A DNA stretch of 32,000 nucleotides from Acaryochloris marina MBIC11017 (GCF_000018105.1 NC_009925.1:1740001-1772000); one strand, 5' to 3'. Positions 4,187-32,000 are shown, counted from the stretch's first letter. Numbers and translations: made by a program. The notes: generated from the letters alone by a model not told the origin.

Positions 4187-4420
4187 ATGTCTGAATTATT
4201 TACTGAATTATCTGATCAACAGCAAGAACTCGTTGCGGGTGGTTCAATCACATTGATCAATGCCAATCTAACCAGCTTTAAATCCAATACTGAAGTTCTT
4301 GGTGCTGCTGGTGGTGCTGCTTCTGGTCCTGGTGGATCTGCAGCGGCTGGTGAAATTGCTGGTGCCAACCAAGAACTTTATACCACTGCCATTAACTTTC
4401 AGTATGGCAACGTACTATAG
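4187..4420 (+). CDS. Double-glycine-leader peptide precursor, copy 3
   Basis: 77 aa. The leader MSELFTELSDQQQELVAGG is identical to copy 2. The core has diverged but is collinear. The upstream motif lies at 4168-4180. Confidence 0.85.
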   Translation: MSELFTELSDQQQELVAGGSITLINANLTSFKSNTEVLGAAGGAASGPGGSAAAGEIAGANQELYTTAINFQYGNVL

Positions 4421-4577
4421 TCATCCATTTGACTGAGTTCTAGGTTTCAAAACCACACGATTAGGGCTGTATAAATTGCATGAATTCTTTTAGTGAACAA
4501 CCTTTATCAAGTTCATTATGGAATCACAATTTCATCCAGCCCTATTCCAGTTTGTCCCAACGTTCCAATCAACTATT

Positions 4578-4823
4578 ATGTCTGGTCAATCCTCTGAGTT
4601 ATTTATAGAGCTATCTGAACATGAGCAAGAAATTGTTGCAGGGGGCACAACAACACTATTCAACTTAAATCAGACGGAATTCTTCTCTCAGTTAAACCTC
4701 TATCAAGCGAGTGGCGTAGCCACTGCTGGCCCCAACGGTGCTAGTGCATCTGGGTCAATCACCCACATGAACCAAACCATAGACACCAAGGCATTCAACT
4801 TCGTCTTCGGCCAGATTGATTGA
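4578..4823 (+). CDS. Double-glycine-leader peptide precursor, copy 4 (divergent)
   Basis: The track ORF starts at 4518. The internal ATG at 4578 gives MSGQSSELFIELSEHEQEIVAGG, collinear with copies 1-3, so 4578 is preferred. The core keeps the NxNxTxF and FGx end motifs. Confidence 0.75.
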   Translation: MSGQSSELFIELSEHEQEIVAGGTTTLFNLNQTEFFSQLNLYQASGVATAGPNGASASGSITHMNQTIDTKAFNFVFGQID

Positions 4824-4860
4824 TAAAAAAACCGGGAAGGCAGGTATCTCAATCATCCCA

Positions 4861-4873
4861 GTGCAAGTGAGGT
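4861..4873 (+). repeat. Orphan fourth copy of the peptide-gene translation-initiation motif GTGCAAGTGAGGT
   Basis: The 13-mer is identical to those 7 nt upstream of the ATGs of copies 1-3, but no start codon or ORF follows. Confidence 0.6.
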
Positions 4874-5048
4874 TTTTGGATATATCCTGCTTTCCCTTAA
4901 GTGGCTAAAACATTGAGATTCCAGTGTTTTAGCTATTCAGAGAGCTTTTAGCTTCTCAAGGATTTAATTATAACAGGCATTAAAGATTAGCTAGTTTCTT
5001 GACCTAACCCCCTATCAATCTCCTTAATGCATAGCCCCATAAGATTCC

Positions 5049-6353
5049 ATGAATACCCTCCAACCTGATCAACTTCACTTTGTTCAGGAAGATGAATTTT
5101 TACCCTCCATTAGCCCGTGGATTTCAATGGGGGGAATGGTTTTGGTGCTGGTATTCGGTGCCGCTGTTGCCATTTCCTCTACCCTCAAATTCAGCATCAC
5201 TGTCAAAGCCCCTGCAGCCATTCGGCCCGCAGGTGGCCTGAGTATCGTCCAAAGTGGTATTGATGGCACCATTACTCATATCAACGTGGAGGAAAACCAG
5301 GTCGTCAAAAAAGGCGATCTGTTTGCACAGCTAGACGATTCAGGGTTGCAAACCCGCAAAAGCCAACTGCAAGGAGATATCCAATCCATTACCCTGCAGA
5401 GATATCAGATCAATGCTCAACTCAGAGCGTTAGACCATCAAATTATTGCTGAAACCCGGTTAGTCAGCCGTTCCATCGCCGCCGCAGAAGCCAACTTAAC
5501 CTCACACCGTCGTCGCTATCAAGATCTTAAAATCAGTACCGAAGCAGACCTAGAAGAAGCCCAAGCTGGGTACCACCTGGCTTCTGAAGAGTATCTACGC
5601 TTCAAAGAACTCGAGGAATCAGGAGCCATTGCCAAACTGCAGGTCAAAGAGAAAGAAGCCTCTTTGAAAGCGGCATCCGCCAGAATTAAGCGTCTTAAGG
5701 CTGCAACCAATCCATCAGACGCCACTATTGATCAAGCCTTAGAACAAATTGCCCAGGAAAAAGCCAGAGGTAGTGTCACCCTGGCAGGTCTCAATCAACA
5801 AAAAGAACAGCTGATGCGCACCCGCATCGAAGCCCAAAAGCAGCTCCAACGCACTCAAAAAGAGCTACAGCAAATCGATAACGAACTCAAAGGTACTAAA
5901 ATCCGGGCTCCCATCGATGGCACCGTTTTACAGCTCAATCTACGCAATCCCGGTCAAGTGGTGCAGCCTGGAATCCCCATCGCTCAAATTGCCCCCCGCA
6001 ACGCTCCTTTGATTATCAAGGCTAGGGTCAACGCCCAAGATATCAACCAGGTGAAAACAGGGCAGATGGTTCAAATGCGCGTTTCAGCCTGCCCCTACAC
6101 GGATTACGGCACCTTACAGGGAACCGTTATGAATGTGTCACCGGATGCCATTCCGGTGAATGATGCTAGCGGTCCAGCCACTAGTCCAGCTTTTTATGAA
6201 GTTACCGTACAACCTCGAACCTTATATATGGGCAATCAACAGCGCTGGTGCCGCCTGCAATTTGGGATGGAGGGTCGAGCCGATATTGTGTCACGCCAAG
6301 AAACCGTTCTCCAATTTGTCTTGAAAAAAGCCCGCTTAATGTCCAACTTCTAA
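5049..6353 (+). CDS. HlyD-family membrane-fusion / periplasmic adaptor protein of the peptide exporter
   Basis: 434 aa. It has an N-terminal TM helix (ISPWISMGGMVLVLVFGAAVAISS), a long Q/E/K-rich coiled-coil centre and a C-terminal KIRAPIDGTVLQLN barrel motif. It lies directly upstream of the C39-ABC gene. Confidence 0.85.
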   Translation: MNTLQPDQLHFVQEDEFLPSISPWISMGGMVLVLVFGAAVAISSTLKFSITVKAPAAIRPAGGLSIVQSGIDGTITHINVEENQVVKKGDLFAQLDDSGLQTRKSQLQGDIQSITLQRYQINAQLRALDHQIIAETRLVSRSIAAAEANLTSHRRRYQDLKISTEADLEEAQAGYHLASEEYLRFKELEESGAIAKLQVKEKEASLKAASARIKRLKAATNPSDATIDQALEQIAQEKARGSVTLAGLNQQKEQLMRTRIEAQKQLQRTQKELQQIDNELKGTKIRAPIDGTVLQLNLRNPGQVVQPGIPIAQIAPRNAPLIIKARVNAQDINQVKTGQMVQMRVSACPYTDYGTLQGTVMNVSPDAIPVNDASGPATSPAFYEVTVQPRTLYMGNQQRWCRLQFGMEGRADIVSRQETVLQFVLKKARLMSNF

Positions 6354-6380
6354 CTCGCCTGATCAAACGATAAAGGCACC

Positions 6381-8576
6381 TTGTCCATGCCCTCTTTAAT
6401 GCTCCTCAATCCCCTACTCAAATCACGCAAAAGCTACCAGTGTGTCAAGCAATGGAGCGAAGAAGATTGTGGAGCCGCGTGCCTAGCTTCAATCTGCAAG
6501 TATTATGGCCGTCTACTGAGCATTACCCGTAGTCGGGAAGTGGTGGGAACAGGACAACTTGGCACCACCCTGTTAGGTCTGAAAAGAGGCGCTGAAGCCC
6601 TAGGGTTCAATGCCCGTTCTGTGAAAGCATCAGAAGCGTTGATTGATCGGCTACAGGACATCTTACTGCCAGCCATTATCCATTGGAAAGGCTATCACTG
6701 GGTCATTCTCTATGGCAAACGCGGTCGCAAGTATGTTGTGGCCGATCCAGGCGTGGGGATTCGGTATCTCACCAAACAGGAACTTCTCGAATCATGGAAT
6801 GGCATCATGCTCTTACTGGAGCCTGATGTCGATCGATTTCATGATCGAGGCGAAGACGAAGAAAAGTCCGGTGGATTTTCTCGCTTCCTGGGTCGGATTT
6901 GGCCCTATCGTACGATTCTGAGCCAAGCCCTTTTGATCAATATTGTCCTGGGATTATTGGCCCTCTCCAGCCCTTTTCTCATCCAGATTCTGACCGATGA
7001 TGTCTTGGTCCGTCAGGATATGGAGTTGCTGACGGTCGTAGTGGTGGGGGTTGTCATTTCCCAAGTGTTCAGCAGTAGCCTGCAAATCATGCAGTCGAAC
7101 CTGATTGCCCACTTCAGCCAGCGGCTGCAGCTCGGTCTAGTCTTAGAGTTTGGTCGCAAAATCCTGCAACTCCCCCTGAACTACTATGAGTCGCGCAGAA
7201 GCGGGGAGATTATCAGCCGTTTGCGAGATATTAACGAAGTCAATCAACTGGTCTCACAAATCGTTGTTCGGGTCCCCAGTCAAATTTTTGTTGCCATTAT
7301 TTCCATTGGCTTCATGCTGTTTTACAGCGCGAGTTTAACCCTAGTGGCTGCAGGGATTGCCATCATCATGGCTATCTCAACCCTGCCATTTCTGCCAATA
7401 TTGCGGAAGAAAACTCGCAATTTACTGATTCTGTCTTCTGAAAATCAAGGAGTCTTAGTTGAAACCTTCAAGGGAGCGCTAGTCCTGAAAACGACCAACG
7501 CAGCGCCCCAGTTTTGGGAAGAGTTTCAATCTCGATTTGGCCGACTAACCCACCTCACCTTCAGCACCATCCAACTGAGTGTCCTCAACGGTACCTTTAC
7601 TCAGTTGATTTCGAGTATTGGCAGTGTCGCTCTTTTGGCCACGGGAAGTCTGCTGGTCATCAAGGAAGAAATCAGTATTGGCCAGTTACTAGCCTTCAAC
7701 ACTATGCAAGGCAACATGCTCGCTTTGATGACGACCATCATCGGCCTCACAGATGAATATTTTCGGGCTCAAACGGCAATTGGCCGTATTTTAGAGGTCA
7801 TCGATGCCACACCAGAATCCGTCGGAGAGACTAACAAACCTTTTGCCCAGCTCTCTGGAGACCATGATATTACCTGCTCCCATTTAAACTTTCACCATGC
7901 TGGGCGAGTCGTTCTCCTAGATGATTTTTCCTTGACGCTACCTGGGGGGAAGGTAACCGTCATCATTGGGAAATCCGGCTGTGGTAAAAGCACCCTGGCC
8001 AAGGTGATCGCAGGCCTTTATCAAACCCAGTCTGGAACCGTCAGAATCGGTCCCTATAATTTACAGGATTTGTCCATCGTCGCTCTCCGGCAACAAGTCT
8101 CGTTTGTCCCCCAAGAACCTCATTTTTGGAGTCGATCCATTATTGAGAACTTTCAGCTAGGCAACCCGCAAGTCTCGTTTGAACAAATCGTAAAGGCCTG
8201 CCAAATTGCGGATGCTGACAGCTTTATCAGCGAATTACCCAATACGTACCAGACCGTTTTAGGTGAGTTTGGTGCCAACTTATCGGGTGGGCAGCGGCAG
8301 CGGTTAGCCATTGCTCGGGCCATTGTTAACGATCCACCCATCTTGATTTTGGATGAATCCACTGCAGGCTTAGATCCCGTGAGCGAAGCCGAAGTTCTAG
8401 ATAAATTACTAGCCTATCGCCAAGGCAAAACGACCATCATGATTTCCCACCGCCCCAGCACCATTAAACGAGCAGAGTGGTTGATTCAAATGGAAAAAGG
8501 CCAACTGCTTTTGGAAGGAGACTTTGCCTCCCTAGCTACTCAACCTGGAGAACATCAGAAGTTTTTAAACCACTAA
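6381..8576 (+). CDS. Peptidase-C39-domain ABC transporter (double-glycine leader cleavage and export)
   Basis: 731 aa. C39 motifs: QWSEEDCGAACLASI (Cys), IIHWKGYHWVILYG (His), VVADPG (Asp). It has a six-helix TMD, Walker A GKSGCGKST, signature LSGGQRQRLAIARA, Walker B ILILDEST and H-loop ISHR. The start is TTG at 6381 or ATG at 6387. Confidence 0.92.
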   Translation: MSMPSLMLLNPLLKSRKSYQCVKQWSEEDCGAACLASICKYYGRLLSITRSREVVGTGQLGTTLLGLKRGAEALGFNARSVKASEALIDRLQDILLPAIIHWKGYHWVILYGKRGRKYVVADPGVGIRYLTKQELLESWNGIMLLLEPDVDRFHDRGEDEEKSGGFSRFLGRIWPYRTILSQALLINIVLGLLALSSPFLIQILTDDVLVRQDMELLTVVVVGVVISQVFSSSLQIMQSNLIAHFSQRLQLGLVLEFGRKILQLPLNYYESRRSGEIISRLRDINEVNQLVSQIVVRVPSQIFVAIISIGFMLFYSASLTLVAAGIAIIMAISTLPFLPILRKKTRNLLILSSENQGVLVETFKGALVLKTTNAAPQFWEEFQSRFGRLTHLTFSTIQLSVLNGTFTQLISSIGSVALLATGSLLVIKEEISIGQLLAFNTMQGNMLALMTTIIGLTDEYFRAQTAIGRILEVIDATPESVGETNKPFAQLSGDHDITCSHLNFHHAGRVVLLDDFSLTLPGGKVTVIIGKSGCGKSTLAKVIAGLYQTQSGTVRIGPYNLQDLSIVALRQQVSFVPQEPHFWSRSIIENFQLGNPQVSFEQIVKACQIADADSFISELPNTYQTVLGEFGANLSGGQRQRLAIARAIVNDPPILILDESTAGLDPVSEAEVLDKLLAYRQGKTTIMISHRPSTIKRAEWLIQMEKGQLLLEGDFASLATQPGEHQKFLNH

Positions 8577-16277: not shown

Positions 16278-19200
16278 ATGCTTGTCAATTTTTTCATTAA
16301 ACGGCCCGTCCTGACGACCGTTTGTGCCCTCCTGATCCTGCTGATGGGCCTTGTTTGTCTTCCCACCTTACCCATTGCCCAATATCCAGATATCAGCCCG
16401 AAACAGGTCAGTATTCAGGCCAACTTTATTGGTGCCGATGCCGCCACTGTCGAAGATGGCGTCACGAGCATTCTGGAACGGGAGATTAACGGGGTCGAAG
16501 GTCTTCGCTACATGACCTCAAGCAGCAGCAACAGCGGCTCTAGTTCTATCACCGCCACCTTTGAGAATAATCGTGACCAAGATTTAGCAGCGGTGGATGT
16601 GCAGAATCGCGTCTCCAGTGTGGAGTCCCAGTTACCCGCGGCTGTCCAACAGACCGGGGTCCGGGTGACGAAACAATCCAGCAGCATTCTGATGGGCTTT
16701 GGCCTCTTCAGTGAGGACGACGAGTACGACAGTATTTTCCTGAGTAACTATGCGGACCTATATCTAACCAATGCCCTGAAGCGCGTCAATGGCGTTGGTA
16801 ATGTCACTATTTTCGGAGAACGGAAATATGCCATGCGCCTATGGCTCGACCCCGAGCGGTTAGCCAAGCGCAATCTAACCGGGCAAGATGTGGTGGATGC
16901 CCTACAAGAACAAAATATTCAAGTGGGGGCGGGACAAATTGGTCAACCGCCCGCCCCAGAAGGTCAGCAGTTCCAAATTGATATCCGCGCCGAAAGTCGA
17001 CTCAACACGATTGAAGAATTTGAGGCGTTAGTCGTTGACTCCACCGACGGTAATCTGATCAAGCTCCAAGATGTTGGGCGAGTTGAATTGGGGGCTGAAA
17101 ATTACGGTTCATTCTTACGGTTTCGCGGTAAAGACGCGGTCGGCTTGGGGATTTCCCAAATCCCTGGGAGTAACGCCCTAGACGTTGCTCGGGGCGTCAA
17201 AGAAACCATGGCAACCCTATCTGAAGACTTCCCCCCAGGGATGACCTATGACATCGGTTTTGACACCACCGATTATGTGGAGCAGTCCCTAACGGAAGTA
17301 ATCTGGACCTTAATCCAAGCGGTTGGTTTAGTGGTCCTGGTGATCTTTGTCTTTTTGCAAGATTGGCGCACCACCATTATTCCCGCCGTCACCATTCCCA
17401 TTTCCCTAATTGGGACGTTTGTATTTGTTAAATTATTCGGCTTTTCCATCAATAGCTTGACCCTGTTTGGTCTCACCCTGGCCACAGGCATGGTGGTGGA
17501 TGATGCCATTGTGGTGGTCGAAAATGTTGCCGCCAAAATTCAGAATGAGGGCATCGAGCCTCGTCAGGCCGCCATTGTGGCTATGGAAGAGCTAACAGGG
17601 GCCGTCATTGCCACCTCTCTTGTTTTGATGGCGGTGTTTGTACCTGTAGCCTTTTTCCCCGGTACAACAGGTGCACTGTATCAACAGTTTGCCTTAACGA
17701 TTGCATTTGCGATCTCACTCTCCACCTTCAACGCCCTCACCCTGACTCCCACCCTATCCGGATTACTCCTCCGTCAAAATCCCAGCATTCCTGACTGGAT
17801 AGCACCAGCCTTCAATTGGTTTAACCGCCAGCAAGATCGGCTTCGTCAGAGCTACGGCAACATTTTGGACTGGATGAACCGGTTCAAATATTTCATCTTG
17901 GCGATTTTTGCTGCCCTGTTAACCTTTACCGCTTGGATTTATACCACTGTCCCTTCAGCCTTTCTACCGGAAGAAGACCAAGGGTATTTCCTCACCATTG
18001 TCGGTGCCCCCGATGGTGTGTCTCTGGAATACACCAGCGACGTCATGAAAAAGATCGAAGAGGTCATGCTTCCCCTACCTGAAGTGCGGGCCACCTTCGC
18101 CGTGGGAGGATTTAGCTTTGGGGGCAATGCATCCAATAAAGGGATTGTGTTTACCACTCTCAAACCCTGGTCAGAACGCCGCAGCTCCGAACAATCTGCC
18201 CAAGCAATTATTAATCGAGTGCGCGGTCAATTATTCCAAATTCCCGAAGCCCGCATTCTAGCCATCAATCCACCCGCTATTCGGGGGCTCGGGAGCTATG
18301 GAGGATTCACCTTCCAACTCCAAGACCGCTCAGAGAATTTAAGCCTCGATGAGTTTGTCAGTAACTTAGGGCCAGTCTTGGGAGCCGCTAACAGCAATGA
18401 TGCCCTCGAAGGGGCATTCACCACCTATGGAGCCAATACACCACAGCTCAAGGTCGAAGTCAATCGTCAGCGAGCGAAAGCCCTCCAAGTCGATGTGGAC
18501 GAAATTTTCAATACCCTGCAGATCTATTTGGGGTCTCGGTATGTCAACGATTTCAATTTAGGTCGCCGCACCTATCGGGTCTATGTGCAAGCCGATCAAC
18601 AGTTTCGCTCCAATCCCGATGATATTGGCAAGCTATACGTGCGCTCTGGCACGGACCAAATGATTCCCCTCAGTAACTTAGTCACCATTACGTCCGTAAC
18701 GGGTGCTCAAACGATTAATCACTATAATCAATTCCGGTCCATTGAGATTAACGGAGCCGCCAAGGCAGGGGTGAGTTCTGGGCAAGCCTTACAAGCCATG
18801 GAAGAAATTGCCGCCAAAGTTCTCCCGCCAGGACTAGGGTTTGAATGGTCAGGTATCTCCTTGGAAGAAATCGAGTCCGGGGGGCAAGCAACAATTATTT
18901 TCAGTTTGGGTTTGGTACTCGTCTTCCTAGTTCTGGCTGCCCAATACGAAAGCTATGTGGATCCAGTTATCATTATGCTCTCCGTTCCCCTCGCAGTTTT
19001 AGGGGCGTTGGGAGCCCAAGTCTTACGGGGCTTTTCCAACGATATTTACTGCCAAATTGGTCTCGTGATGCTGATTGGTCTCGCGAGTAAAAACTCAATT
19101 CTGATTGTTGAGTTTGCCAACCAACTCCGGGAAGAAGGACTCCCCATTCCTAAAGCGGCCCTGCAAGCGGCCCAACAACGACTCCGACCCATTTTAATGA

Positions 19201-19454: not shown

Positions 19455-19728
19455 AACCGCTAACTGCCAGGTCAAATCATCAAAAAGTGGGCTCACCCTA
19501 GTTTTATTGACATTGGTATTGCCATCAAAAAATACTGTTTTATTTGTATTTCATGATACAAGGGATTCCAGTCGCCTAGATCTACCGGTCTGTCACTCAT
19601 TTTTAGGGGCATTAAGCAGATTTCTCCCATTAAAGTCTTGAAAAAATGCACAACATGTGATCCATAGAAGAAAACATTGGGAACATTCAGTAGTATTCCA
19701 ATGCTGTTCGTAATTTCAAGGAGAAATT

Positions 19729-19893
19729 ATGCCGCAACGATATCGAGAGGAAGTTGAAGCATTAGCTAAAGCTTTATTAAGTAGTCACGAAAAAGATGGC
19801 CTGATTTATAGTGGGATTGCAACGCTACTTATGGTTGCCTTAACCATTTATTGGGTGGATGGACTCATTAGGCTAGGATTGATTGGTGGATAG
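19729..19893 (+). CDS. Small tail-anchored membrane protein (54 aa), not in the ORF track
   Basis: AAGGAG (19718-19723) lies 5 nt before the ATG. The product is MPQRYREEVEALAKALLSSHEKDGLIYSGIATLLMVALTIYWVDGLIRLGLIGG. A hairpin plus T-run follows at 19923-19956. Confidence 0.45.
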   Translation: MPQRYREEVEALAKALLSSHEKDGLIYSGIATLLMVALTIYWVDGLIRLGLIGG

Positions 19894-19922
19894 GGTTTGA
19901 GAGTGCAAGATGATCAGTTACC

Positions 19923-19956
19923 AAGCCCTGAGAGATCTTTCTTAAAGGGCTTTTAT
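19923..19956 (+). terminator. Hairpin plus T-run downstream of the small ORF
   Basis: AAGCCCT (19923-19929) pairs with AGGGCTT (19946-19952) around a 16-nt loop and is followed by TT A. Confidence 0.3.
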
Positions 19957-20130
19957 ACACTTATTTATATCAATTTATATATAAAATATTCAGGCTAGTA
20001 GAAATCATTAGCTATCCTTCATCAACGGGAATCAATCAATTATTTTTTTAGCTCAGATTATCTACAGTACTCTCCAATTTTTTCTCTCGCAGTGGAATGA
20101 GTCAAGCTATCAATCTCTTCCTAAAAGTTG

Positions 20131-20619
20131 TTAGAGCACCCCTTGATCATAGGTTGAGTACTCTAATCCTAAAATATTGCGCAAGGCGGGTAGTTGATGA
20201 GTTTGTAGAAACTCAAAGTTAGAATAATTCAAGCTCTTAAAAGGGACCTGCCGCCCATGTTCCACGCCTGCACTAAATTCTTCTAGTTCTCTTTGACTTA
20301 AACAATAGGGGCTAGGGTAAAGAAACCGAGCGACAAACTGGAAGAGCATAAGATGAAACCAATGGGTATTAGGGTCATTACCCATGGCAAATCCCAGAAC
20401 ATAGGCTTCACCAAAGGAGTCGAATCCTTTTTTCAACAAGAGGTGTAGACAGTCATGCTGGTACAAGTCAATTTTGCCGGGTAGCGCCAAGGGACTCCTA
20501 GGATTTTCAAAAAGCCACACGAAGAATGGGATCTTCGAAGGGGGATCTCCAGCTAACATTAAATATGCATCACGCAGAGTTAATACTTCAAGTTCTTCTG
20601 GATAGATATCCCAAAGCAT
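20131..20619 (-). CDS. Coq4-like HDxxH-x11-E motif protein (function unknown)
   Basis: 162 aa. QHDCLHLLLKKGFDSFGEAYV matches the Coq4-family metal-ligand motif HDxxH-x(10-13)-E, including the G-E ending. The protein is shorter than canonical Coq4. Confidence 0.6.
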   Translation of the reverse strand: MLWDIYPEELEVLTLRDAYLMLAGDPPSKIPFFVWLFENPRSPLALPGKIDLYQHDCLHLLLKKGFDSFGEAYVLGFAMGNDPNTHWFHLMLFQFVARFLYPSPYCLSQRELEEFSAGVEHGRQVPFKSLNYSNFEFLQTHQLPALRNILGLEYSTYDQGVL

Positions 20620-20657
20620 TGACTCCTCCTATTTGAAATATCAAAAATTTACTCATG

Positions 20658-20912
20658 TTAATTGAGAATCCAGCGAAAAATTCCTAAACAGTCCACACAC
20701 AGAAAAAGGGACGCCGAATAAAGCACCATCGACTGGTCTCGAAGCAACATGCTAGAGACCAGCATTTGGCTTGAGCTAACAGCCAGAAAGAGAAATCCAT
20801 AACCACTGATCTCAGTATTCGAGGCAAGGATAATTCCTCCCGTTATGGCACAGGCTGTACTAGAGAATTTTAATCGCCGAGCCCACCTCAAATGATTCCG
20901 AAGTAACACCAT
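20658..20912 (-). CDS. Small membrane protein (about 3 TM)
   Basis: 84 aa and hydrophobic, 38 nt upstream of and co-directional with the Coq4-like gene. Confidence 0.5.
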
Positions 20913-21540
20913 TCGTCATTCTCTAAATAGACAATATCCATGCCAGTATGAACAGTTAAAAATATGCATTGTTTTTATCTGATTTTGCAAAAAACAACTC
21001 AATCCTCTATTCACAAAAACACTAGTACAGCTATCGCCTAATAGAATAAAAATAGCCAGAATAGCTTTCTCAGAAATCATTTCTGATAATCTTACTATTC
21101 GGAATAAAAAACTATTCACTCACACAACAATATAATGTTCAGCGAAGAAATCCGTCTGTAACACCACAATATTTTTCATAAATCAATATTATGTGGGTGT
21201 ATCTAATTTTAGGCTAATCACTTTGTATCATAATTTACAAAATTTTTCTCCGTTTTTTTTAGATTTTCCAGTTCAATTCCAACAAAATAGTCTGTTTTTC
21301 TAGCTCAATATTATTGAAGCCATTCCTATAAACATAAGTCCTGAACTATTTTTCACGATCAAGACAAGAACAGCCACAATATTTTTATTAACTTTATTTA
21401 CATAAATATCTATTTTTTTAGAGAAAAATTCAACAATCATCACTCGATAAAATCCCTGTAACAAAATCTAGAAATTCAGACAAAAAAGGGATCCAAGATA
21501 ATCTATAAAAAAACTGATAAGTCAATACTCTAGAGCTAAT

Positions 21541-24021: not shown

Positions 24022-25296
24022 GTGAGGGTTGTCCCCATGCAGCGATTTAACGTTCTATTGCCTGCTTTAACGGTGGGAACTGCTTTGGTGATGGTGCAGC
24101 CAGCCCAGGCGTTGTCCGGGGCCGAGGTGAATCAAATAGCAAAGGAGTCCACCATTTTGGTGAAAGGCCAAAATCCTGGCTCTGGGGTGCTGGTGGGGAA
24201 AAAGGAAAATACCTACTATGCCCTGACAGCAGAACATGTGGTCGCCACGCCGGATGAGTATGACATTGTGGCTCCCGATGGGACGGAATATGTCTTGAAT
24301 TATCAATCGGTGCAGAAGCTGCCGAATGTGGATTTGGCTCTGGTGAGTTTTACCAGCCAGAAATCGTATCAATTAGCAAAACTCGGTAACTCAGATCAGT
24401 TAACAGAAGGCGATAAGGTCTTTATTGCGGGCTGGCCTTCTTCGGGGGTTGCCCTGCCTCATATCTATCAGTTCACGTCTGGCGAAATTTCCGGTCTGCC
24501 ACCCCAGTCCATCGGTAAAGGCTACAAAATGGTCTATACCAACGTCACCCGAGCAGGAATGAGTGGCGGGCCTGTGTTTAATGATGATGGCAAAGTGGTG
24601 GGGATTCATGGTTTAGCCGAAGGCAGAGAGGTGGTTTTGCCAGGCTATCAAGGGGACCGCAGCGTGATTAAGGCTGGGTTCAATTTGGGAATTCCCATCA
24701 ATACGTTTGTGCGGCTCTCTAAAAAGATGGAGGCCAAGCCCCAGGCGACTCCACAACCCACTCCCAAACCGATTCAAGAATCAACGGCAGTAGCTCAAGT
24801 GATTGATGCGCCTGCTCTACCAGCCCTCCCCAGAGGTCCAAAGGTTACTTTTGATCGCCCCCCTCAACTTGTCGGTACTTCTACAACAAATCGAGATGCC
24901 CGATCTTTAGGAGCCACGTACTTCTTTACGATTGATATTCCACAAGATGCGGCTCAACCGTTGCAAAAGGTGGAGTTTATTTTGAAGCAAGGGGTGCAAT
25001 ATCCACGCTTTAAGGCAACTTCAGTGAAGGCATTTGAGGGGACAAAGCGAAATAAAGGCGAGGCTTTGCCGATTAATATTGTGGTCAGTGATCCATCGGT
25101 TCGGACATTGACGGTTACGTTTGATAAACCTGTTGCTCCAGGTCAAACAATTACAATGGCTGTTCGACCAGTGCGGAATCCTTCGGTGGGAACTTATATG
25201 TTTGAGGTACGAGGTACGCCTGCTGGTTCAACTGCTGAAGGTCAATATTTAGGGATTGGTCGTTTAGATTTTTCACGCAGCTCCTTGGGGAAATAA
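24022..25296 (+). CDS. Secreted trypsin-like (S1) serine protease with a C-terminal cyanobacterial DUF2808-like domain
   Basis: The catalytic triad contexts are TAEHVV, DLALV and GMSGGPV. The track start is GTG at 24022. ATG at 24037 gives a clean signal peptide, MQRFNVLLPALTVGTALVMVQPAQA. A Pro-rich linker precedes a beta-rich C-domain. Confidence 0.85.
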   Translation: MRVVPMQRFNVLLPALTVGTALVMVQPAQALSGAEVNQIAKESTILVKGQNPGSGVLVGKKENTYYALTAEHVVATPDEYDIVAPDGTEYVLNYQSVQKLPNVDLALVSFTSQKSYQLAKLGNSDQLTEGDKVFIAGWPSSGVALPHIYQFTSGEISGLPPQSIGKGYKMVYTNVTRAGMSGGPVFNDDGKVVGIHGLAEGREVVLPGYQGDRSVIKAGFNLGIPINTFVRLSKKMEAKPQATPQPTPKPIQESTAVAQVIDAPALPALPRGPKVTFDRPPQLVGTSTTNRDARSLGATYFFTIDIPQDAAQPLQKVEFILKQGVQYPRFKATSVKAFEGTKRNKGEALPINIVVSDPSVRTLTVTFDKPVAPGQTITMAVRPVRNPSVGTYMFEVRGTPAGSTAEGQYLGIGRLDFSRSSLGK

Positions 25297-25656
25297 AGCG
25301 TGCCCAAGCTAGAGATTTAGGGTGTTAGGTCTATAAATCATCGAGGCAAAAAACCATCAGAAGGTGATTAACTTTTACCAAGAATTTAATCACCATAGAT
25401 TTCTGCTAAAGCCACCGCCAGCCCATCATCCAAATCTTGCAACGCGGACCAGCAGGGGCATTAAACCAGCAGGGGCATTAAAATAGGAATTTACGGTTTC
25501 GTCTGGAACCACTGCCCTATATGGCGTCCAGATCGCACTGTGGGGATGTGTAATGAGATTAGCACCCTGGAATTACCTGATTTAGCCCTCTCCATGAACA
25601 AGAAAACTCATCAAAAAATCAAAATAATGTTTTGTGCTCCCTTCTAAGTTTCTTAG

Positions 25657-25938
25657 CTACTCATAACTGTAGGTGTTTGTCGATATGCACACGCTGCTGG
25701 TCCTAATTGGGCCTATTGGTCGCTTTGGATAGTATTTATTTGGGCAAACGATTCGCCATGTTCCATCAGAGCAGCATATATAAATACCATCTTTTGTTCC
25801 TGCCGGAACGTGCCTATCATTAAGAATACAAGCAGCGTATGCACTGGGTGAAAAGAAATAGATAAATGCTGTCGCAATAATAGTACTTAAAATATACAAA
25901 GAAAGCTTGATGGAGGTATTCATGTTTTTAGATATCAT
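25657..25938 (-). CDS. Small secreted or lipoprotein-like Cys-rich protein
   Basis: 93 aa. The signal peptide ends SPSAYA/AC and the mature part has five Cys, or four if Cys+1 is lipidated. It starts 9 nt after the stop of the upstream 299-aa ORF. Alternative ATG at 25923. Confidence 0.6.
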   Translation of the reverse strand: MISKNMNTSIKLSLYILSTIIATAFIYFFSPSAYAACILNDRHVPAGTKDGIYICCSDGTWRIVCPNKYYPKRPIGPIRTSSVCISTNTYSYE

Positions 25939-25947
25939 AGATGATTA

Positions 25948-26847
25948 TTATTCAGCTTTTGAAATTGAAACTTGAACTTTTGGAAGATAAGCTGTAAACG
26001 AGTCTGCTCCAGACAGTCTCATTTTTTTAGCAACACTTTGGGTCACTCGAATTTCAAGTATCCCAGAATGTTTATTAGGACTATTTTTTTCTCTTCCTAC
26101 GATTCTTACTGAATTTATTAATGGAGATTCTTCTCCCTCTCTCACAATTCTTAAGTATACTTGATTTGGATATTTTGAATTACAACCATACGCTAGAAAG
26201 TATGATTCATCAATATCATGAGGAACAACAACAACTGCTAAATCCTTGTTATGATCAATAGAGTGGCCACAATTTGTTTGTAGTGATGTATCAGGTAACA
26301 TGGTCAAAGCAGCTGGTATTGGCAGCTTTCCAACATCAGAAACAAACTCTTTAGTAACCTTACCTTTTACCTTGATCAACTCTATTTTTGCAAGAATATG
26401 TTGATTAAATCGTTCTGTTACTACATTAACAAATTCTTCTTTTTTTATAAAATCTTCATACTGTTTTTGACTCCATTCTTTTGTAGCATTAAAGACAAAA
26501 TCTGGCGCCCCTTTTTTAACCTTTTTTAGGTCTTTTATTTCAACGTTATCTTTATTTAAATTGTAGATATGTTCTGGTGAATAAATATTTTGTATGAGCC
26601 ATCTTAGAATCCAATCACTAGATGTGGCCTTTGCATAAATTCCTTGGGCTAAAATAAGGCCCATAATAGACATTATAGTTGTAATAATAATTTTGGCAGT
26701 CTTGAATGTTTCATGAATAGATTTTATTATTGAAATATCATTCGCGATTTGATCTTGTAATTTATTGAGTTCACTTGTAGATAAATATTCAATAGTTTGT
26801 TGTACATCTTTTTTTGAATTTTGATTATTAAAGTTTTTTTCTTTCAT
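25948..26847 (-). CDS. Orphan single-pass membrane protein (299 aa)
   Basis: A 900-nt ORF in extremely AT-rich DNA, where stop codons are frequent, argues for real coding. There is one TM helix (IIITTIMSIMGLILAQGIYA). No family recognised. Confidence 0.75.
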   Translation of the reverse strand: MKEKNFNNQNSKKDVQQTIEYLSTSELNKLQDQIANDISIIKSIHETFKTAKIIITTIMSIMGLILAQGIYAKATSSDWILRWLIQNIYSPEHIYNLNKDNVEIKDLKKVKKGAPDFVFNATKEWSQKQYEDFIKKEEFVNVVTERFNQHILAKIELIKVKGKVTKEFVSDVGKLPIPAALTMLPDTSLQTNCGHSIDHNKDLAVVVVPHDIDESYFLAYGCNSKYPNQVYLRIVREGEESPLINSVRIVGREKNSPNKHSGILEIRVTQSVAKKMRLSGADSFTAYLPKVQVSISKAE

Positions 26848-27457
26848 TGTTTTATCTCAAGAATGATTTTTATGATAATTCAAAACTAATTTTTGTGAAA
26901 TAAAAATATTCGCATTTATTTTTTAATTCATATTTTTTGGAAAAACTTAAGAACAAATATATTCTCAATCCGTTTATTGTCCTCTACCTTAATAAGCATT
27001 GTCTTATAATATTTTGCTAATCCAGTGAAATGCTAAGATGCCCTTTTTTGATATAGATACTAAATTAAGATTTACTTTAAAATTTCTTGGTCAATTTTTT
27101 TTGACAGATTGATAAAAGGAGTGAATTATATTTTTCAATAGTATTGAAATGGTGACAGATCTCAGCAACTCTCTTGTCTTAATATTCTCTCAATAAATTA
27201 AGCTTGAGCAGATATAGTTTCAACTATATTTTTCCCTAAGAAATATATAATTTAAGCTTGAATTAGAAATTTTTTATGATCACTTCCATGTAATAAAAAT
27301 CACAACTAAAATAATAAAAAATCTTAATCTTTTTGTATGTATTTTATTCTTATACATTATGCAGTTTTCTTTATTTTTTACTAAAAAATTTAATTCAGTA
27401 TTTTATTTGTCAATTTGTTGACATACTATTTTCTATAAACACCACATCATGATGAGA

Positions 27458-27774
27458 CTAAACAAAACCGAGGGATAGAGAAGTTCTAATACTTGAGGCA
27501 CCTGCATCACCAGCATCTTTAAGATAGAGACTTGTTTTTGAGAGATTGTAATCTTCCATTTGAGTCCTGATCAATTCTCCCTGTTTTCGTCGATACAGCA
27601 GTTCAATATACTGCTGTGGGGTCAATTTATTCTTACATCCAAAACTGACCCCACAGGCTTTTGCATTTTTGATTCTATGCATTCGGATTTCAGTTTCAGG
27701 CCCCTAAAAGTCATTGATTACACCTAGTGTCAGCAACCCTTCAATTGGGCCTATTGGAAAGCCTAGAGAGATTA
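27458..27774 (-). pseudogene. Serine recombinase (resolvase/invertase) remnant: C-terminal HTH part only
   Basis: ETEIRMHRIKNAKACGVSFGCKNKLTPQQYIELL...YNLSKTSLY matches the resolvase E-helix and HTH region. There is an in-frame TAG at 27704-27706. The catalytic N-domain is absent and the remnant abuts the stop of the 220-aa ORF. Confidence 0.6.
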
Positions 27775-28437
27775 TTAATTCAACTGTAACGATCTAGCAT
27801 TATCAATCACTCCTTTTACATTTCGTAATCGATCTAATTGATCGTGCCAATAAGAACTCCCTGCTGCTGCTGCAAAGCCACCAACAAAAATATTGATCAG
27901 AGGATCTTGAAGCTTATTTAATGTGTCGAGCCACTCTTTCCCTTCTTCTGAAGTGGATAATATCTGAAAAACGTAAAATTCAGATTGCCAAACTAAAAAA
28001 CATCCAACGGCTGCAGCAAGAGTACGGATGATAAAAACTCGCTTTCGTTTGTCTGCATCTAACTCAGCTTTGACATTTAATGCAACTTCATTCAGTGCAT
28101 GCTTCAATGCATCAGTTATTGGCTTACCTGCTAGCTTAGATAATTCTAATTTGATTTCATTAAGAGTCGTAATATTATGTTTAGACTTCATTTTTAGTTG
28201 TTTTTGAGCATTCATCAAAGCATCAACCTTAGAAACCATTTCTGAATTATTACCAGAGAATTCTTTTAGTAAATCTAGAGACTGTTCTATAGATATCTTA
28301 CTTTTTGCCCAAACAACTCCAAACTGTTCAAGGAATCCTCTAAAGATTTCCAATATAACTTCTACGGAAGCTGAAAGGACAAGAAACATGAAGAAAAGCA
28401 TCCCAATAAGCGATAGGAAAGAATCCATGGTTACCAA
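27775..28437 (-). CDS. Orphan membrane protein (about 3 TM plus a coiled-coil segment)
   Basis: 220-aa ORF with a TTG start at 28437; ATG at 28428 is more likely. It has hydrophobic segments at the N-terminus, VFIIRTLAAAVGCFLVW and INIFVGGFAAAAGSSYW. It is a long ORF in AT-rich DNA. Confidence 0.7.
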   Translation of the reverse strand: MVTMDSFLSLIGMLFFMFLVLSASVEVILEIFRGFLEQFGVVWAKSKISIEQSLDLLKEFSGNNSEMVSKVDALMNAQKQLKMKSKHNITTLNEIKLELSKLAGKPITDALKHALNEVALNVKAELDADKRKRVFIIRTLAAAVGCFLVWQSEFYVFQILSTSEEGKEWLDTLNKLQDPLINIFVGGFAAAAGSSYWHDQLDRLRNVKGVIDNARSLQLN

Positions 28438-28461
28438 TACTCATCGAATATTTATTTAAAA

Positions 28462-28485
28462 CTTTTGCCTTAATCAGAGCAAAAG
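28462..28485 (-). terminator. Hairpin plus T-run downstream of the integrase remnant
   Basis: CTTTTGC (28462-28468) pairs with GCAAAAG (28479-28485). On the minus strand it is followed by TTTTAAAT. Confidence 0.3.
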
Positions 28486-28579
28486 AAGACTCACCTAGAT
28501 ATCAGGTTATGAAACATTTATTATGCATCTTCACCTATCAATTATTTTTTGAAGATGCTCCATTAAAATCATTTGATAT

Positions 28580-28966
28580 TTACAACTCCATCTCAAAGAT
28601 CCGTGCCACATCCCTAGACTGAATCCCCAGATAAGCCATCGTCTGCTGCTGGGACTTATGCCCAAACGCCTCCATCACCAACGGAATCGGCGTATGCCAC
28701 TTATACTGCCAATACCCCCACGTCTTCCGCAGCGTATGGCTTCCATAGTGACCCTTTAGCCCCACCAATCGACACCAGCGCTTCACCATATTCGTCACCG
28801 TCGGCAACCGGACCATGCAGACACCAGAACAGATAGTCTTCATCCTCAAACACCCGAGACCTCAACAACGACTGAATCACCGACACCGCCTTAGAATTCA
28901 ACGTCACCAACCGATACCGGTCCGTCTTCGACTGTTTCAGATCAATCACATCCCCCACCCCCAGAT
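28580..28966 (-). pseudogene. Tyrosine recombinase/integrase, C-terminal portion (frameshifted)
   Basis: Two overlapping frames carry consecutive parts: ...DYLFW (frame A) and RLPTVTNMVKRWCRLVGLKGHYGSHTLRKTWGY...GHKSQQQTMAYLGI (frame B, with the HxxR box and catalytic Tyr). The frameshift lies at about 28800-28830. Confidence 0.8.
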
Positions 28967-30449
28967 CAATGGCACTGACTTAAGAAGTCAGGAAAAAGCT
29001 ACAAGTCTTGATAGATATAGGATCAAGACTTGCACGCCATAAACTTCTGCCTTTCACTATGTCTGAGTCAGCCGAAATTCTCAAGCAGCAATTTTCCCAA
29101 AGCCTGGGTTTACCGTGGACAGATATCCTTCCAGCCTCAAGGTTAGAGGAACTCCTGAAAGAAGAAGCATTCTCCTATCGCAACCGGATATATAGCCCCA
29201 TCGTTACGCTGTGGGCCATGCTTTACCAAGTGCTATCAGCCGATAAAAGCCTTCGTAACACAGTCAAATGCATCACGACTTGGCTCACAGCGGCTGGCAT
29301 CCAACCGCCCTCATCTGATACCGGAGCCTACAGCAAAGCCAGAAGTCGCTTTCCAGAGTCACTGTTGCAACGTTTAATTCCCGAAAGCGCTGAGTGCTTA
29401 GCGCAACCCCTCTCCCCAGAGCACCTCTGGTGTGGTCGGCCCGTCAAGGTCTACGACGGAACCACCGTGTTGATGGCTGATAGTGCGGCCAACCAAGCAT
29501 CATATCCACAACATGGCAATCAAACAGCAGGCTGTGGTTTTCCCATCGCTCGCTTGGTAGTGTTCTTCTGTTTGGTTACCGGTGCAGTGGCGTCAGCTTG
29601 TATTGCCTCCTGGGACACCAGTGAAATTGTCATGAGTCGTTTGCTCTATCAAGACCTTGAGGTCGGTGATGTGGTCATGGCGGACCAAGCTTATGGCAGC
29701 TATGTTGATCTAGCCATCATTCAACAACACAGGGCTGATGGAGTGTTGCGTAAACATCATGCTCGCAAGACTGATTTCCGCAAAGGCAACAAGCATGGCA
29801 TTGGTGATCATCAGGTGACATGGCATAAGCCAGCCCAACGGCCTGAGCACATGAGTGAGCAAGATTTTGCCCTGATTCCTCAAACATTGGTCGTTAGAGA
29901 GGTGTGTTTGCGCTTATCCCTTAAGGGCTTTCGCGACCAGCACATTATTGTGGTGACGACGCTGCTGGATGCTCAACGCTACAGCGCTGGGCAACTGACT
30001 CGCTTGTATGGCTGGCGTTGGCCAGTGGCGGAAGTCAATCTGCGCCATCTCAAAACCACCTTAAAAATGGAGATGCTCAGTGCCAAAACTCCGGATATGG
30101 TGCGCAAGGACATTTGGGTACATTTGTTGGGCTATAACCTACTCAGAAGTCTCATGGAACTTGCGGCACCGCTAGCAGATAATGCTAGAACTCAACTGTC
30201 TGTGCAAGGAGCACGACAACACTTCAATCAGATGCTTGCTTTGTTGGCGACAGCCAACCGTGCGACCAGAAAGCGGTTGTTTACTCATCTACTTGAGACC
30301 ATGGCAGCCGATCTATTACCCTCTCGACCGAATCGGCACGAACCGAGAGTCGTCAAACGCAGACCCAAATCTTTCCCGCGAATGCGACAACCTCGCTCTG
30401 CTCTCAAAGCTAAGCTAGCTGTTTGATTGAGCTTAAGTCAGTGCCATTG
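28967..30449 (+). mobile_element. Intact IS4-family insertion sequence (1483 bp)
   Basis: Perfect 18-bp terminal inverted repeats, CAATGGCACTGACTTAAG (28967-28984) and CTTAAGTCAGTGCCATTG (30432-30449). The flanking 10-bp direct repeat is ACCCCCAGAT (28957-28966 and 30450-30459). It carries a single DDE transposase ORF. Confidence 0.9.
29059..30426 (+). CDS. IS4-family DDE transposase
   Basis: D motifs are VKVYDGTTVLMADS and VVMADQAYGS, and the Y-R-E-K region is YGWRWPVAEVNLRHLK. The track ORF begins with TTG at 29008; ATG at 29059 (MSESAEIL) is preferred. Confidence 0.88.
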   Translation: MSESAEILKQQFSQSLGLPWTDILPASRLEELLKEEAFSYRNRIYSPIVTLWAMLYQVLSADKSLRNTVKCITTWLTAAGIQPPSSDTGAYSKARSRFPESLLQRLIPESAECLAQPLSPEHLWCGRPVKVYDGTTVLMADSAANQASYPQHGNQTAGCGFPIARLVVFFCLVTGAVASACIASWDTSEIVMSRLLYQDLEVGDVVMADQAYGSYVDLAIIQQHRADGVLRKHHARKTDFRKGNKHGIGDHQVTWHKPAQRPEHMSEQDFALIPQTLVVREVCLRLSLKGFRDQHIIVVTTLLDAQRYSAGQLTRLYGWRWPVAEVNLRHLKTTLKMEMLSAKTPDMVRKDIWVHLLGYNLLRSLMELAAPLADNARTQLSVQGARQHFNQMLALLATANRATRKRLFTHLLETMAADLLPSRPNRHEPRVVKRRPKSFPRMRQPRSALKAKLAV

Positions 30450-30664
30450 ACCCCCAGATAGCGCACCTGGCTCGCCCTCAACGACAGCAGCTCATTCGCC
30501 CGATAGGCCGTATTAATCCCCAGCGTAAACAGACACAGATCCCGAGGACTCCACGACAACAGCTGCTTAATCCCCGCAATCGCTTTCTTCATCCGAATTG
30601 GCTCCACCTTAATCGAAGAATCCAACTTCGAATGATTCGGATTCGACCCCTTTGGCAACGGCAT
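30450..30664 (-). pseudogene. Tyrosine recombinase/integrase, N-terminal portion (split by the IS)
   Basis: MPLPKG...RDLCLFTLGINTAYRANELLSLRASQVRYLGV. Removing the IS and one target-duplication copy restores a continuous frame, ...QVRYLGVGDVIDLKQSKTDRYRLVTLN... Confidence 0.85.
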
Positions 30665-30780
30665 AACCTACCTAAAAAGTAATTAAGTTATTTCCCTTAT
30701 CAACCTATAACTTAATCACCTCAAATTCCCCTCTCCCTCAACAAAAGCCCCAACCCCCACTCCATATCCCTTTCTCCCAT

Positions 30781-31072
30781 AGAAGAGATGATTAACTAAT
30801 GATGGAATAGTCAAACACCTCCGGTAAAACCGGAGGCTTGGAAGAACCCCTTAAAGGGGATTTTAATCGCTGGTCTTAAACTCTCACTTTTGATGTTGAC
30901 GGCAGCACATCTCCATAACACGCTGTTGTCACACTGAAGTCTTACTATAAGGCTAAGGCTTGTGGGGTTTGCAACGCCCAAATTTTTGGATGAGGCTATG
31001 ACCGCGGTAAAGGTTAAACCTTACGAGTCCTCCGGTTAAACCGGAGGCTTAAGCAGGATAGTTAATCATCTT
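30781..31072. other. About 290-bp structured element with imperfect terminal inverted repeats and twin subterminal hairpins (MITE-like or ncRNA candidate)
   Basis: The ends are GAAGAGATGATTAACTA (30781-30797) and TAGTTAATCATCTTC (31058-31072). The subterminal hairpins are CCTCCGG-TAAAA-CCGGAGG (30817-30835) and CCTCCGG-TTAAA-CCGGAGG (31028-31046). There is no ORF. Confidence 0.5.
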
Positions 31073-31098
31073 CAGTCATGAAATTTCATGAGCTGATC

Positions 31099-31141
31099 AG
31101 TTTGTATCACTTACCGAGAATGTCTCGGTAAGTGATACAAA
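31099..31141 (-). terminator. Perfect 20-bp-stem hairpin 34 nt downstream of the last minus-strand ORF
   Basis: GTTTGTATCACTTACCGAGA, loop ATG, then TCTCGGTAAGTGATACAAAC. There is no clear T-run, so the terminator role is tentative. Confidence 0.4.
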
Positions 31142-31174
31142 CTAAATCGAAAACTTTAAAAATGCAGAAGATTT

Positions 31175-32000
31175 CTACTCATCCGTATGCCAAGGATCTT
31201 TAGTAAAATTTTCATCCAAAATCCGCTTGGGTCGCATCACTAAAACCACCTGCCCATAAAGTTTCTGCTCAGGAGCCTCCGCAAACCACTGCACCTGCAA
31301 CTGCCCATCTGCCTCCACCAAAAAGTAACAGTCCTCATGCCACTGCCGCTGATCACGATCAATAATCACTAACACCTCCTCCGTTGGTCGAGGCAGATCT
31401 GGCCCTAAATCCTGTACCTGCGCTAACAACGCCACCGGATCCTCCGCCCGCAAAATCACCTGCCAACCCGGAACCGGAACCCAAGCACAAGTCCCTGAAA
31501 ACTGCACCATCCCAAACGGTTCTTCTTCCTCAACCACCGGCACCGCCTTCAAATCCGCCAGCGTCAATGGCAAGTGCCCCATCACTGGCATCAACCGGGG
31601 CAACTCCTCCTCTGACTCCAGCCGGAAAAATGGCAGACGGGGAGCCTCTTTCGCCTTCACCACCGAGAAGTCGCTCAATAGCTGCTGTAACTGCTCCCGT
31701 GCCGAATCACTATGGGCATACTTTAGTCCTTGACCAATGAGTCGCGATCTCTCCTGCAAATCATCCTTTTGACGGGCAAAATACCAGCATCGGTAGGCCA
31801 TAGCATCTCCCGGTGTATCGGTAAAACCCACCGGAGTCTCCGAGAGACGACTGAACTCCTTCATCGCCTTTGCGATCGCACGGGCATCATCTGCATCCAA
31901 CTGCTTTTCTGCCGCCAGTGTGGCCGCTGCCGCGCGTTCCACCTGATTCAACACCCGAAACTCATAGAGAATATCGCTACGGCGCTCACCAAAATATTGG
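31175..32000 (-). CDS. Hypothetical acidic protein, 5'-truncated by the window edge
   Basis: The track gives a GTG start at 31954, but the frame stays open to base 31999 (...QYFGERRSDILYEFRVLNQVERAAA...), so the gene probably starts beyond the window. It contains a HIP1 site. No family recognised. Confidence 0.7.
   Translation of the reverse strand, partial: QYFGERRSDILYEFRVLNQVERAAAATLAAEKQLDADDARAIAKAMKEFSRLSETPVGFTDTPGDAMAYRCWYFARQKDDLQERSRLIGQGLKYAHSDSAREQLQQLLSDFSVVKAKEAPRLPFFRLESEEELPRLMPVMGHLPLTLADLKAVPVVEEEEPFGMVQFSGTCAWVPVPGWQVILRAEDPVALLAQVQDLGPDLPRPTEEVLVIIDRDQRQWHEDCYFLVEADGQLQVQWFAEAPEQKLYGQVVLVMRPKRILDENFTKDPWHTDE

Follow-up and report, generated by a model that had tools for sequence, protein, structure and literature searches.

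The AT-rich stretch at positions 25297-28579 of the analysed chromosomal segment of Acaryochloris marina MBIC11017 (NC_009925.1, 32,000 nucleotides in length, hereafter referred to as the window) is the cargo part of a 5.9-kb mosaic insert, horizontally acquired and residing at a strain-variable hotspot. The mobility genes of this insert are of the plasmid type and dead, and its cargo comprises two independent, unrelated units rather than one module. The division into two units is drawn because, in the loci examined, relatives of the 217-amino-acid (aa) protein AM1_1776 (unit A) are solitary and never adjoin relatives of the 299-aa protein AM1_1774, and the latter forms a pair of its own with a 93-aa peptide precursor (unit B). 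On balance, we favour the reading in which the insert bears these two cargo units, unit B being a peptide/barrel binding pair and unit A a separate membrane protein. Coordinates in the window equal the MBIC11017 coordinates minus 1,740,000 (e.g., the protease gene AM1_1773, 1764037-1765296, is found at 24037-25296).

In order to delimit the insert, orthologues of the flanking protease were searched for, their loci were retrieved and the junctions were compared by BLASTN with three other Acaryochloris genomes. Homology to all three ends at window position 25297 and returns at 31137-31175, and since it halts and resumes at these points, the variable insert can be placed at 25298 to about 31174 (5.9 kb), comprising the AT-rich cargo, a recombinase pseudogene, an insertion sequence (IS) and a 510-nt right junction. 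An earlier note on this DNA, made from the sequence alone, had proposed a horizontally acquired island at 25297-28579; the break of homology agrees with horizontal acquisition and the low-GC stretch is real, but the variable insert runs on to about 31174. In the three genomes compared, the site is empty in one and filled with other cargo in two. In Acaryochloris ‘Moss Beach’ the empty gap between the protease gene and raf1 measures 281 bp. In a strain with a 98%-identical protease (locus L028, 11511-16567) the gap harbours genes for GmrSD_N (DUF262), a 176-aa protein, a C5 DNA methylase, an HNH endonuclease, an XRE-type helix-turn-helix (HTH) protein and Uma2, a restriction/defence-type islet at the same hotspot, and in a metagenomic Acaryochloris it is filled by a 522-aa RTX protein. 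Judged by these sequences, the gap between the DUF2808 protease gene and raf1, which adjoins the RuBisCO operon, is a strain-variable hotspot. The insert itself is known solely in MBIC11017, in the near-identical MBIC10699 (AP026075), where the same proteins are encoded, and in a few sequencing runs. Its features and left flank are as follows (ORF, open reading frame):

24037-25296, plus strand: protease AM1_1773 with Trypsin_2 and DUF2808 domains (Pfam), conserved left flank, outside the insert
25298-25656, no strand assigned: left junction segment, GC 37-51%, with a 17-nt tandem duplication at 25448-25481 (repeat family D3)
25657-25938, minus strand: 93-aa precursor of a small secreted four-Cys peptide (ORF; homologues in loci L035/L036, L037 and L039)
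25948-26847, minus strand: AM1_1774 (ABW26795), 299-aa bitopic membrane protein (ORF, alignments A2/A3, AlphaFold2 (AF2) model, Foldseek)
26848-27457, no strand assigned: 610-bp spacer, GC 22.5%, without an ORF of at least 40 aa
27458-27682, minus strand: C-terminal remnant of a serine recombinase (resolvase/invertase), 74-aa ORF (tblastn)
27693-27751, no strand assigned: dispersed repeat of about 59 nt, with intergenic copies on Acaryochloris megaplasmids
27775-28428, minus strand: AM1_1776 (ABW26797), 217-aa membrane protein (family alignment A1, AF2 model)
28580-28965, minus strand: 3' part of a tyrosine recombinase pseudogene (Pfam Phage_integrase; frameshift)
28966-30450, plus strand: IS4-like insertion sequence, 1485 bp, with a DDE transposase gene at 29008-30426
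30451-30664, minus strand: 5' part of the tyrosine recombinase pseudogene (in-silico reconstruction)
30665-31174, no strand assigned: right junction, with the plasmid-homologous upstream region of the recombinase to about 30821

The composition of the stretch is as abrupt in its change as the earlier note had described. Positions 25297-28579 have a GC content of 32.9% vs 47.9% for the remainder of the window, which is the minimum among all 3283-nt windows of the 32 kb (median 47.4%); the fall begins no more than 1 nt from the protease stop codon and ends exactly at the stop codon of the tyrosine recombinase at 28580. The hand counts behind that description were exact (9 G/C at 27301-27360 and 32 at 17521-17580). 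The reported absence of HIP1 sites from the region was likewise correct but carries no information, because the whole 32 kb has just 6 of them and a stretch of this length would be expected to hold about 0.6. A second low-GC patch (19501-21500, 36.5%) contains a 162-aa ORF on the minus strand (20131-20619), the position of which is conserved in other Acaryochloris; hence, low GC alone is no marker of foreign DNA in this genome. The AT-rich spacer at 26848-27457, which presumably contains the promoter region of the 299/93-aa gene pair, includes a promoter-like site at 26899-26872 on the minus strand; the promoter and terminator scans, taken as a whole, gave numbers near the shuffle expectation. 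Rfam yielded zero matches, the spacer included, and no plasmid DNA match was obtained for the spacer.

Both mobility genes of the insert are real and both are inactivated, as had been supposed in the earlier note. Residues 1-57 of the 74-aa ORF share 59% identity (tblastn, E 2e-10) with residues about 123-181 of 186-aa recombinases, namely pAQ6/pAQ7-type ‘recombinase family proteins’ of Picosynechococcus and Synechocystis plasmids, and a weak match to PHROG 125 (‘DNA invertase’) was also recorded; a sequence search against the PDB gave no match. The remnant, which is separated from the upstream gene by 92 nt, keeps the last third of the protein with the HTH region, the catalytic domain with its nucleophilic serine being gone, and to judge from what is retained it is not a functional recombinase. 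The tyrosine recombinase is dead, since its reading frame through the catalytic R-H-R-Y region is broken by the IS and by a frameshift. The IS is bounded by perfect terminal inverted repeats of 19 nt, and the 8-bp target sequence CCCCCAGA is duplicated on either side of it (28958-28965 and 30451-30458); upon excision of the IS in silico one frameshift is left. The repaired product keeps the HxxR, GH and Y motifs and is 90% identical to the intact 198-aa genes of the conjugative plasmids pREC4 (MBIC10699) and pMB06 (‘Moss Beach’), with DNA identity of 89-91%. In this it resembles the small cyanobacterial/Firmicute plasmid tyrosine recombinases of about 190-200 aa annotated as ‘site-specific integrase’, from which the copy in the insert differs in being chromosomal, IS-interrupted and frameshifted. 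The homology to plasmid DNA spans the tyrosine recombinase and about 150 nt upstream of it and stops exactly at the stop codon, where the AT-rich DNA starts. The dispersed repeat at 27693-27751 has 84-93% matches on plasmids from three strains (MBIC10699, ‘Moss Beach’ and S15), is present in as many as 6 copies on a single plasmid (pREC4), and may represent a MITE-like (miniature inverted-repeat transposable element) sequence or a recombination site. Because both recombinases and this repeat are of the plasmid type, the scaffold of the insert is taken as plasmid-derived; the AT-rich cargo is of foreign origin. Neither cargo family was found among 72,556 plasmids, 50,697 phages or IMG/VR.

At the ends of the insert, the left junction (25298-25656) gave no alignment to the empty site or to other strains and no plasmid DNA match. 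The right junction contains two 22-nt palindromic repeats, CCTCCGGTWAAACCGGAGGCTT, at 30818-30839 and 31029-31050, an element restricted to this locus among the loci retrieved, and a perfect 21-nt hairpin is located at 31099-31143 beside the raf1 stop codon. Two candidate attachment (att) sites, a 15-nt direct repeat (25705 and 27743) and a 16-nt imperfect inverted repeat (25362 and 30706), could both have arisen by chance, and the sole ARAGORN call, tRNA-Pro(tgg) at 31460-31542 on the minus strand, lies inside the raf1 coding sequence (31175 onward) and is probably a false positive. In its atypical composition, variable presence at a fixed site, recombinase and IS genes and alternative cargo the insert is like other strain-variable genomic islets. 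It differs from them in having neither a tRNA target nor flanking direct repeats, and in its recombinases: in place of a phage-type integrase it has two small enzymes of plasmid type, one a resolvase and the other a multimer-resolution-like tyrosine recombinase, both of them inactivated.

The cargo had been described in the earlier note as three long minus-strand ORFs of 220, 299 and 93 aa, all predicted membrane or secreted proteins of no recognizable family. The ORFs are present and hydropathy supports their membrane or secreted character, but the first of them is 217 aa long when read from ATG, and not 220 aa from TTG. Scans of Pfam, NCBIfam, PHROGs and PADLOC gave no match to any of the three products, yet they are not strict orphans and relatives exist for each.

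In unit B, AM1_1774 consists of an N-terminal helical region (a coiled coil by eye), one transmembrane (TM) segment at residues 53-71, a helical linker and a C-terminal domain at about 165-299. A word-indexed search retrieved only the protein itself, which suggested an absolute orphan; this was overturned by a full HMMER scan of 1.84 billion representatives, in which 19 relatives were found (about 20 clusters in total), two of them 38-39% identical and the others 22-31%. The relatives share the N-terminal helical region, one TM segment, an ‘IYPPxxIY’ motif and the C-terminal domain with two invariant cysteines (Cys193/Cys222 in AM1_1774). The second gene of the unit is absent from the gene calls for this chromosome region, in which nothing is annotated at 25657-25938. 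Its 93-aa product begins with a hydrophobic, signal-like segment of Sec type ending in AYA|A; in the copies as a group these N-termini end in AYA, AYG or SLA. The core common to all copies is C-x17-CC-x8-C with GT[KT]xGxYxCCxDGxW, the tails vary, and the copy in the window carries an extra C-terminal tail of 27 aa.

The pairing of the two genes recurs in other gene contexts. Homologous small ORFs are located downstream of the 39%-identical (L035/L036) and 38%-identical (L037) relatives of AM1_1774, and in L039 the small ORF stands divergently upstream of a 23%-identical relative, so that the peptide gene adjoins the large gene in three of three outside contexts, in tandem or divergently. Pairwise E values between the peptides range from 4e-12 to 2e-3, and those involving the window copy from 5e-10 to 4e-7 (database size set to 1e9 residues); the peptide core is about 67% identical (counted by eye) where the large proteins are 39% identical. 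All copies of unit B have a GC content of 29-31%, and the copy in L039 adjoins HigB and RepL. A search with the peptide DNA motif recovered a single, already known contig in JGI metagenomes and none in IMG/VR. On these sequence comparisons, the 299-aa and 93-aa genes constitute a conserved two-gene cassette.

The AF2 model assigns to the C-terminal domain of AM1_1774 a predicted local distance difference test score (pLDDT) of 90-97, and the best Foldseek match of this domain is PA4485 (E 3.5e-4, probability 1.0, TM-score 0.66 on the target), followed by kiwellin, expansins, loosenin and a designed protein with a double-psi beta-barrel (DPBB). The top matches (4avr_A, 6fpg (kiwellin), 2hcz, 1n10, 9ce9, 3d30 and 7dvf) are all, as we take them to be, DPBB proteins, and the domain is thus predicted to be a periplasmic, disulfide-bonded DPBB. 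Its predicted fold at about 165-299 and extracytoplasmic placement are shared with PA4485, RlpA/MltA, expansins/EXLX1, kiwellin and loosenin. AM1_1774 differs from these proteins in lacking sequence-profile similarity and an invariant catalytic Asp, and in the addition of an N-terminal helical region, a TM anchor, a helical linker and genetic coupling to a four-Cys peptide. Like kiwellin, its barrel could bind a protein. In the family alignment A3 only the two cysteines are invariant and no acidic column is, the best one being E265 (16 of the 20 members). Because there is neither a DPBB sequence profile nor an invariant acidic residue, the barrel is probably a non-enzymatic binding module.

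RlpA and MltA are examples of periplasmic DPBB proteins of bacteria that act as lytic transglycosylases. Unit B might, correspondingly, be part of the cell-wall machinery, with an RlpA/MltA/expansin-like barrel cleaving or loosening peptidoglycan and the peptide acting as its regulator or inhibitor. PA4485, bacterial and plant expansins and loosenin are indeed among the top structural matches, and tethering at the outer face of the inner membrane would be compatible with such a role. However, there is no invariant acid, the Asp at the ‘GRxxDH’ position occurring in about half of the members of the family; Pfam DPBB_1, 3D and Barwin give zero matches at E <= 10; and the family is extremely rare and found in accessory or mobile contexts, unlike housekeeping wall enzymes. 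We consider this explanation unlikely.

The preferred reading of unit B as a binding pair can be put as follows. The peptide would be exported by Sec and fold with two disulfides, and the barrel of AM1_1774 would capture it at the outer face of the inner membrane, the two together making up a secreted effector and its cognate immunity or receptor protein, in the manner of a bacteriocin with its immunity protein. An effector/immunity pair is the simplest reading of unit B that we can infer, and we put it forward tentatively, as a possibility. It would be comparable to a Sec-dependent class II bacteriocin with its immunity gene in that a gene for a small predicted-secreted peptide stands beside a gene for a membrane protein, in a mobile or accessory context, with patchy distribution and low GC. 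It departs from such systems in its peptide, which is not cationic and has no match among the known bacteriocin families, and in its putative immunity protein, which at about 300 aa is large and is encoded by the upstream gene.

Unit A is represented by AM1_1776. The family alignment favours the ATG at 28428 as its start codon, which gives 217 aa; the TTG start (27775-28437) gives 220 aa, and the 204-aa GenBank product (ABW26797.1), whose start is placed 13 codons too far downstream, lacks part of the conserved first TM helix. Two hydrophobic segments were detected by the hydropathy scan and a third, Gly/Ala-rich one was read from the sequence, and the AF2 model (pLDDT 84.5) is all helical. 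By the positive-inside rule, the topology would be N-out/C-in, with TM1, a cytoplasmic helical bundle and a TM2-TM3 hairpin. The family consists of 104 homologous clusters of 207-235 aa, from Archangium, Raoultella, Pseudomonas, Methylomonas, Mesorhizobium, Phycisphaeraceae (Phycisphaerae), Rhodobacterales, Burkholderiales and many metagenomes, with 10 loci only among 185,579 species representatives; it is thus rare and patchily distributed. Residues E23, R30, G190, S191, Y193, W194, H195, D196, D199, R202 and K205 are invariant in alignment A1, most of them forming the C-terminal motif G-S-x-Y-W-H-D-x-x-D-x-x-R-x-x-K (GSSYWHDxxD). A full-length variant 89% identical to AM1_1776 also exists.

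All-against-all BLAST of the neighbours in 15 loci revealed no conserved partner gene for this family. The neighbours vary (CheB/CheW, ABC transporter genes, P450, GH57 and IS elements), no enrichment in defence genes was seen among the loci examined, and the GC content of the family gene is often below that of the host locus. Among the Archangium relatives, one has a toxin-type deaminase gene as its neighbour, and a distance of about 5 kb separates another from a Schlafen/AlbA_2 gene. In Raoultella sp. BIGb0149 (L007/L008, 7133-9904) the relative belongs to a three-gene low-GC islet (38-46% vs 52-63% in the flanks) with a PG_binding_1 protein on one side and a DUF900 hydrolase on the other, possibly a functional association peculiar to that lineage. 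In a Chloroflexota metagenome-assembled genome (L019, 7997-10144) a 715-aa ORF ends in a GSSYWHD-type motif, which suggests that the conserved C-terminal helix has been fused to a large N-terminal part without a Pfam match.

Most likely, unit A would be an oligomerising inner-membrane protein, channel-like or stress-related, spreading as a single-gene ‘moron’, and we do not expect units A and B to cooperate. Similarity searches for the family gave little: its profile had no sequence match in the PDB, a Pfam scan of its members returned coiled-coil noise among the first 25 of the 52 families reported, and Foldseek of the model found nothing significant in the PDB or BFVD, the matches to GPCR-BRIL and ExbB being rejected as generic helical bundles. 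Coiled-coil noise was likewise all that Pfam gave for the members of the 299-aa family. The presence of ExbB (5sv0_B) in the Foldseek list, together with the same inferred topology (N-out, TM1, a large cytoplasmic helical domain, the TM2-TM3 hairpin and a cytoplasmic tail), might nevertheless point to a divergent ExbB/TolQ/MotA-type stator or channel subunit. This we regard as very improbable: 5sv0_B stands at rank 43 with E 0.52 and a TM-score of 0.28, Pfam MotA_ExbB was not among the first 25 of the 52 families from the scan of 53 members, and no ExbD/TolR/MotB-like gene adjoins any copy examined.

AM1_1776 is transcribed, as is evident from published array data (PMC5295598, Table S3), in which its signal was 214 in the control, 94 under microoxic and 978 under hyperoxic conditions, i.e., log2 changes of -1.18 and +2.19, the latter amounting to 4.6-fold induction. 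AM1_1774 is absent from the differential-expression table, which is uninformative on its expression. We found no paper text mentioning AM1_1773 to AM1_1776, and the mBio 2024 supplements do not contain these genes.

The transcription and regulation of AM1_1776 speak against the view that the insert is decaying, functionless plasmid debris whose ORFs have survived by chance. Such a view would accord with the death of both recombinases and the insertion of the IS, with the gene-free 610-bp spacer of 22.5% GC, and with the occurrence of the insert in just MBIC11017, MBIC10699 and a few sequencing runs. The cargo, too, speaks against it: all three ORFs are intact, the 217-aa protein retains every family-invariant residue and has an 89%-identical full-length counterpart, and the 299/93-aa pair retains both invariant cysteines and the peptide motif. 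We hold debris to be improbable, slightly more so than a role of unit B in the cell wall.

The earlier note had supposed the cargo to be a single membrane-acting module of defence or toxin type. This is not supported as stated: there are two unrelated units, no PADLOC match, and families absent from phages, plasmids and IMG/VR. Read as an anti-phage module for defence or exclusion at the membrane (abortive infection or superinfection exclusion), the idea can draw on the GmrSD_N, C5 methylase and HNH genes at the hotspot in the sister strain, on the membrane or secreted nature of the cargo proteins and on the deaminase and Schlafen/AlbA_2 genes near the Archangium copies. Moreover, 11 of 53 relatives of the 217-aa protein, about a fifth, weakly match the C-terminal 100 residues of the PADLOC candidate PDC-M40C (E 3e-4 to 1e-2). 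The PDC-M40C matches, however, are marginal, as is a PADLOC match to LeoA in one of the 20 members of the 299-aa family; they lie over the central helical region and one TM segment, the window copy has none, and the family is solitary, not a multi-gene system. In addition, four proteins of the window remain without a match in PADLOC-DB v2 even at E <= 1, the neighbours of the 217-aa family are heterogeneous with no recurring partner, both families are missing from phages, IMG/VR and plasmids, and units A and B are unlinked elsewhere. Considering these facts, we rate an anti-phage module as unlikely, on a par with cell-wall machinery.

Circumstantial support for an accessory or conflict role of the cargo comes from the GmrSD/methylase/HNH genes at the same hotspot in the sister strain and from HigB and RepL beside the L039 pair. 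A bolder version of the favoured reading would see in unit B a novel envelope pair (a two-disulfide mini-protein and a non-catalytic barrel binding it) that works as toxin/immunity or peptide/receptor and is mobile among AT-rich bacteria, and in the 217-aa GSSYWHD family a new single-gene membrane effector; taken as a whole, we deem this doubtful.

Several points weigh against the two-unit reading with its binding pair. Neither experiment nor detectable homology stands behind toxin, immunity, receptor or channel activity. What speaks for a DPBB is a structure predicted from a 20-sequence alignment; there is no PDB sequence match, and none of the 20 members matches Pfam DPBB_1, 3D or Barwin, whether the full-length protein or the C-terminal domain is scanned at E <= 10. 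The pairing of the unit B genes rests on three independent outside contexts, the peptide cores are not cationic, unlike typical antimicrobial peptides, and transcription is supported for AM1_1776 alone. Finally, there is no tRNA at either junction and no att-type direct repeats bracket the insert.

Elsewhere in the window, at 3277-8576, four tandem small ORFs of 77, 77, 77 and 101 aa (3277-3510, 3784-4017, 4187-4420 and 4518-4823; 37% GC) bear a ‘ELSDQQQELVAGG’ leader of double-glycine type and are followed by an HlyD-like ORF of 434 aa (5049-6353) and an ORF of 731 aa (6381-8576). This region has the look of a bacteriocin cluster of the double-glycine-leader kind, exporter included.

Taken together, these results make the island ordinary in kind, i.e., accessory DNA at a chromosomal hotspot. 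The gap by the RuBisCO/raf1 operon serves as a landing pad that holds restriction-type genes in one strain and uncharacterised envelope genes in another, and megaplasmid DNA feeds the Acaryochloris chromosome. For the annotation, an unannotated peptide gene was found and the start codon of AM1_1776 was corrected, and two protein families that Pfam does not contain were defined, each having conserved motifs and a structure model that can be used. The extreme rarity of the peptide/barrel pair limits its general importance; if it is truly a toxin-immunity or signalling cassette, it would represent a new class of small disulfide peptides and a new use of the DPBB in bacteria.

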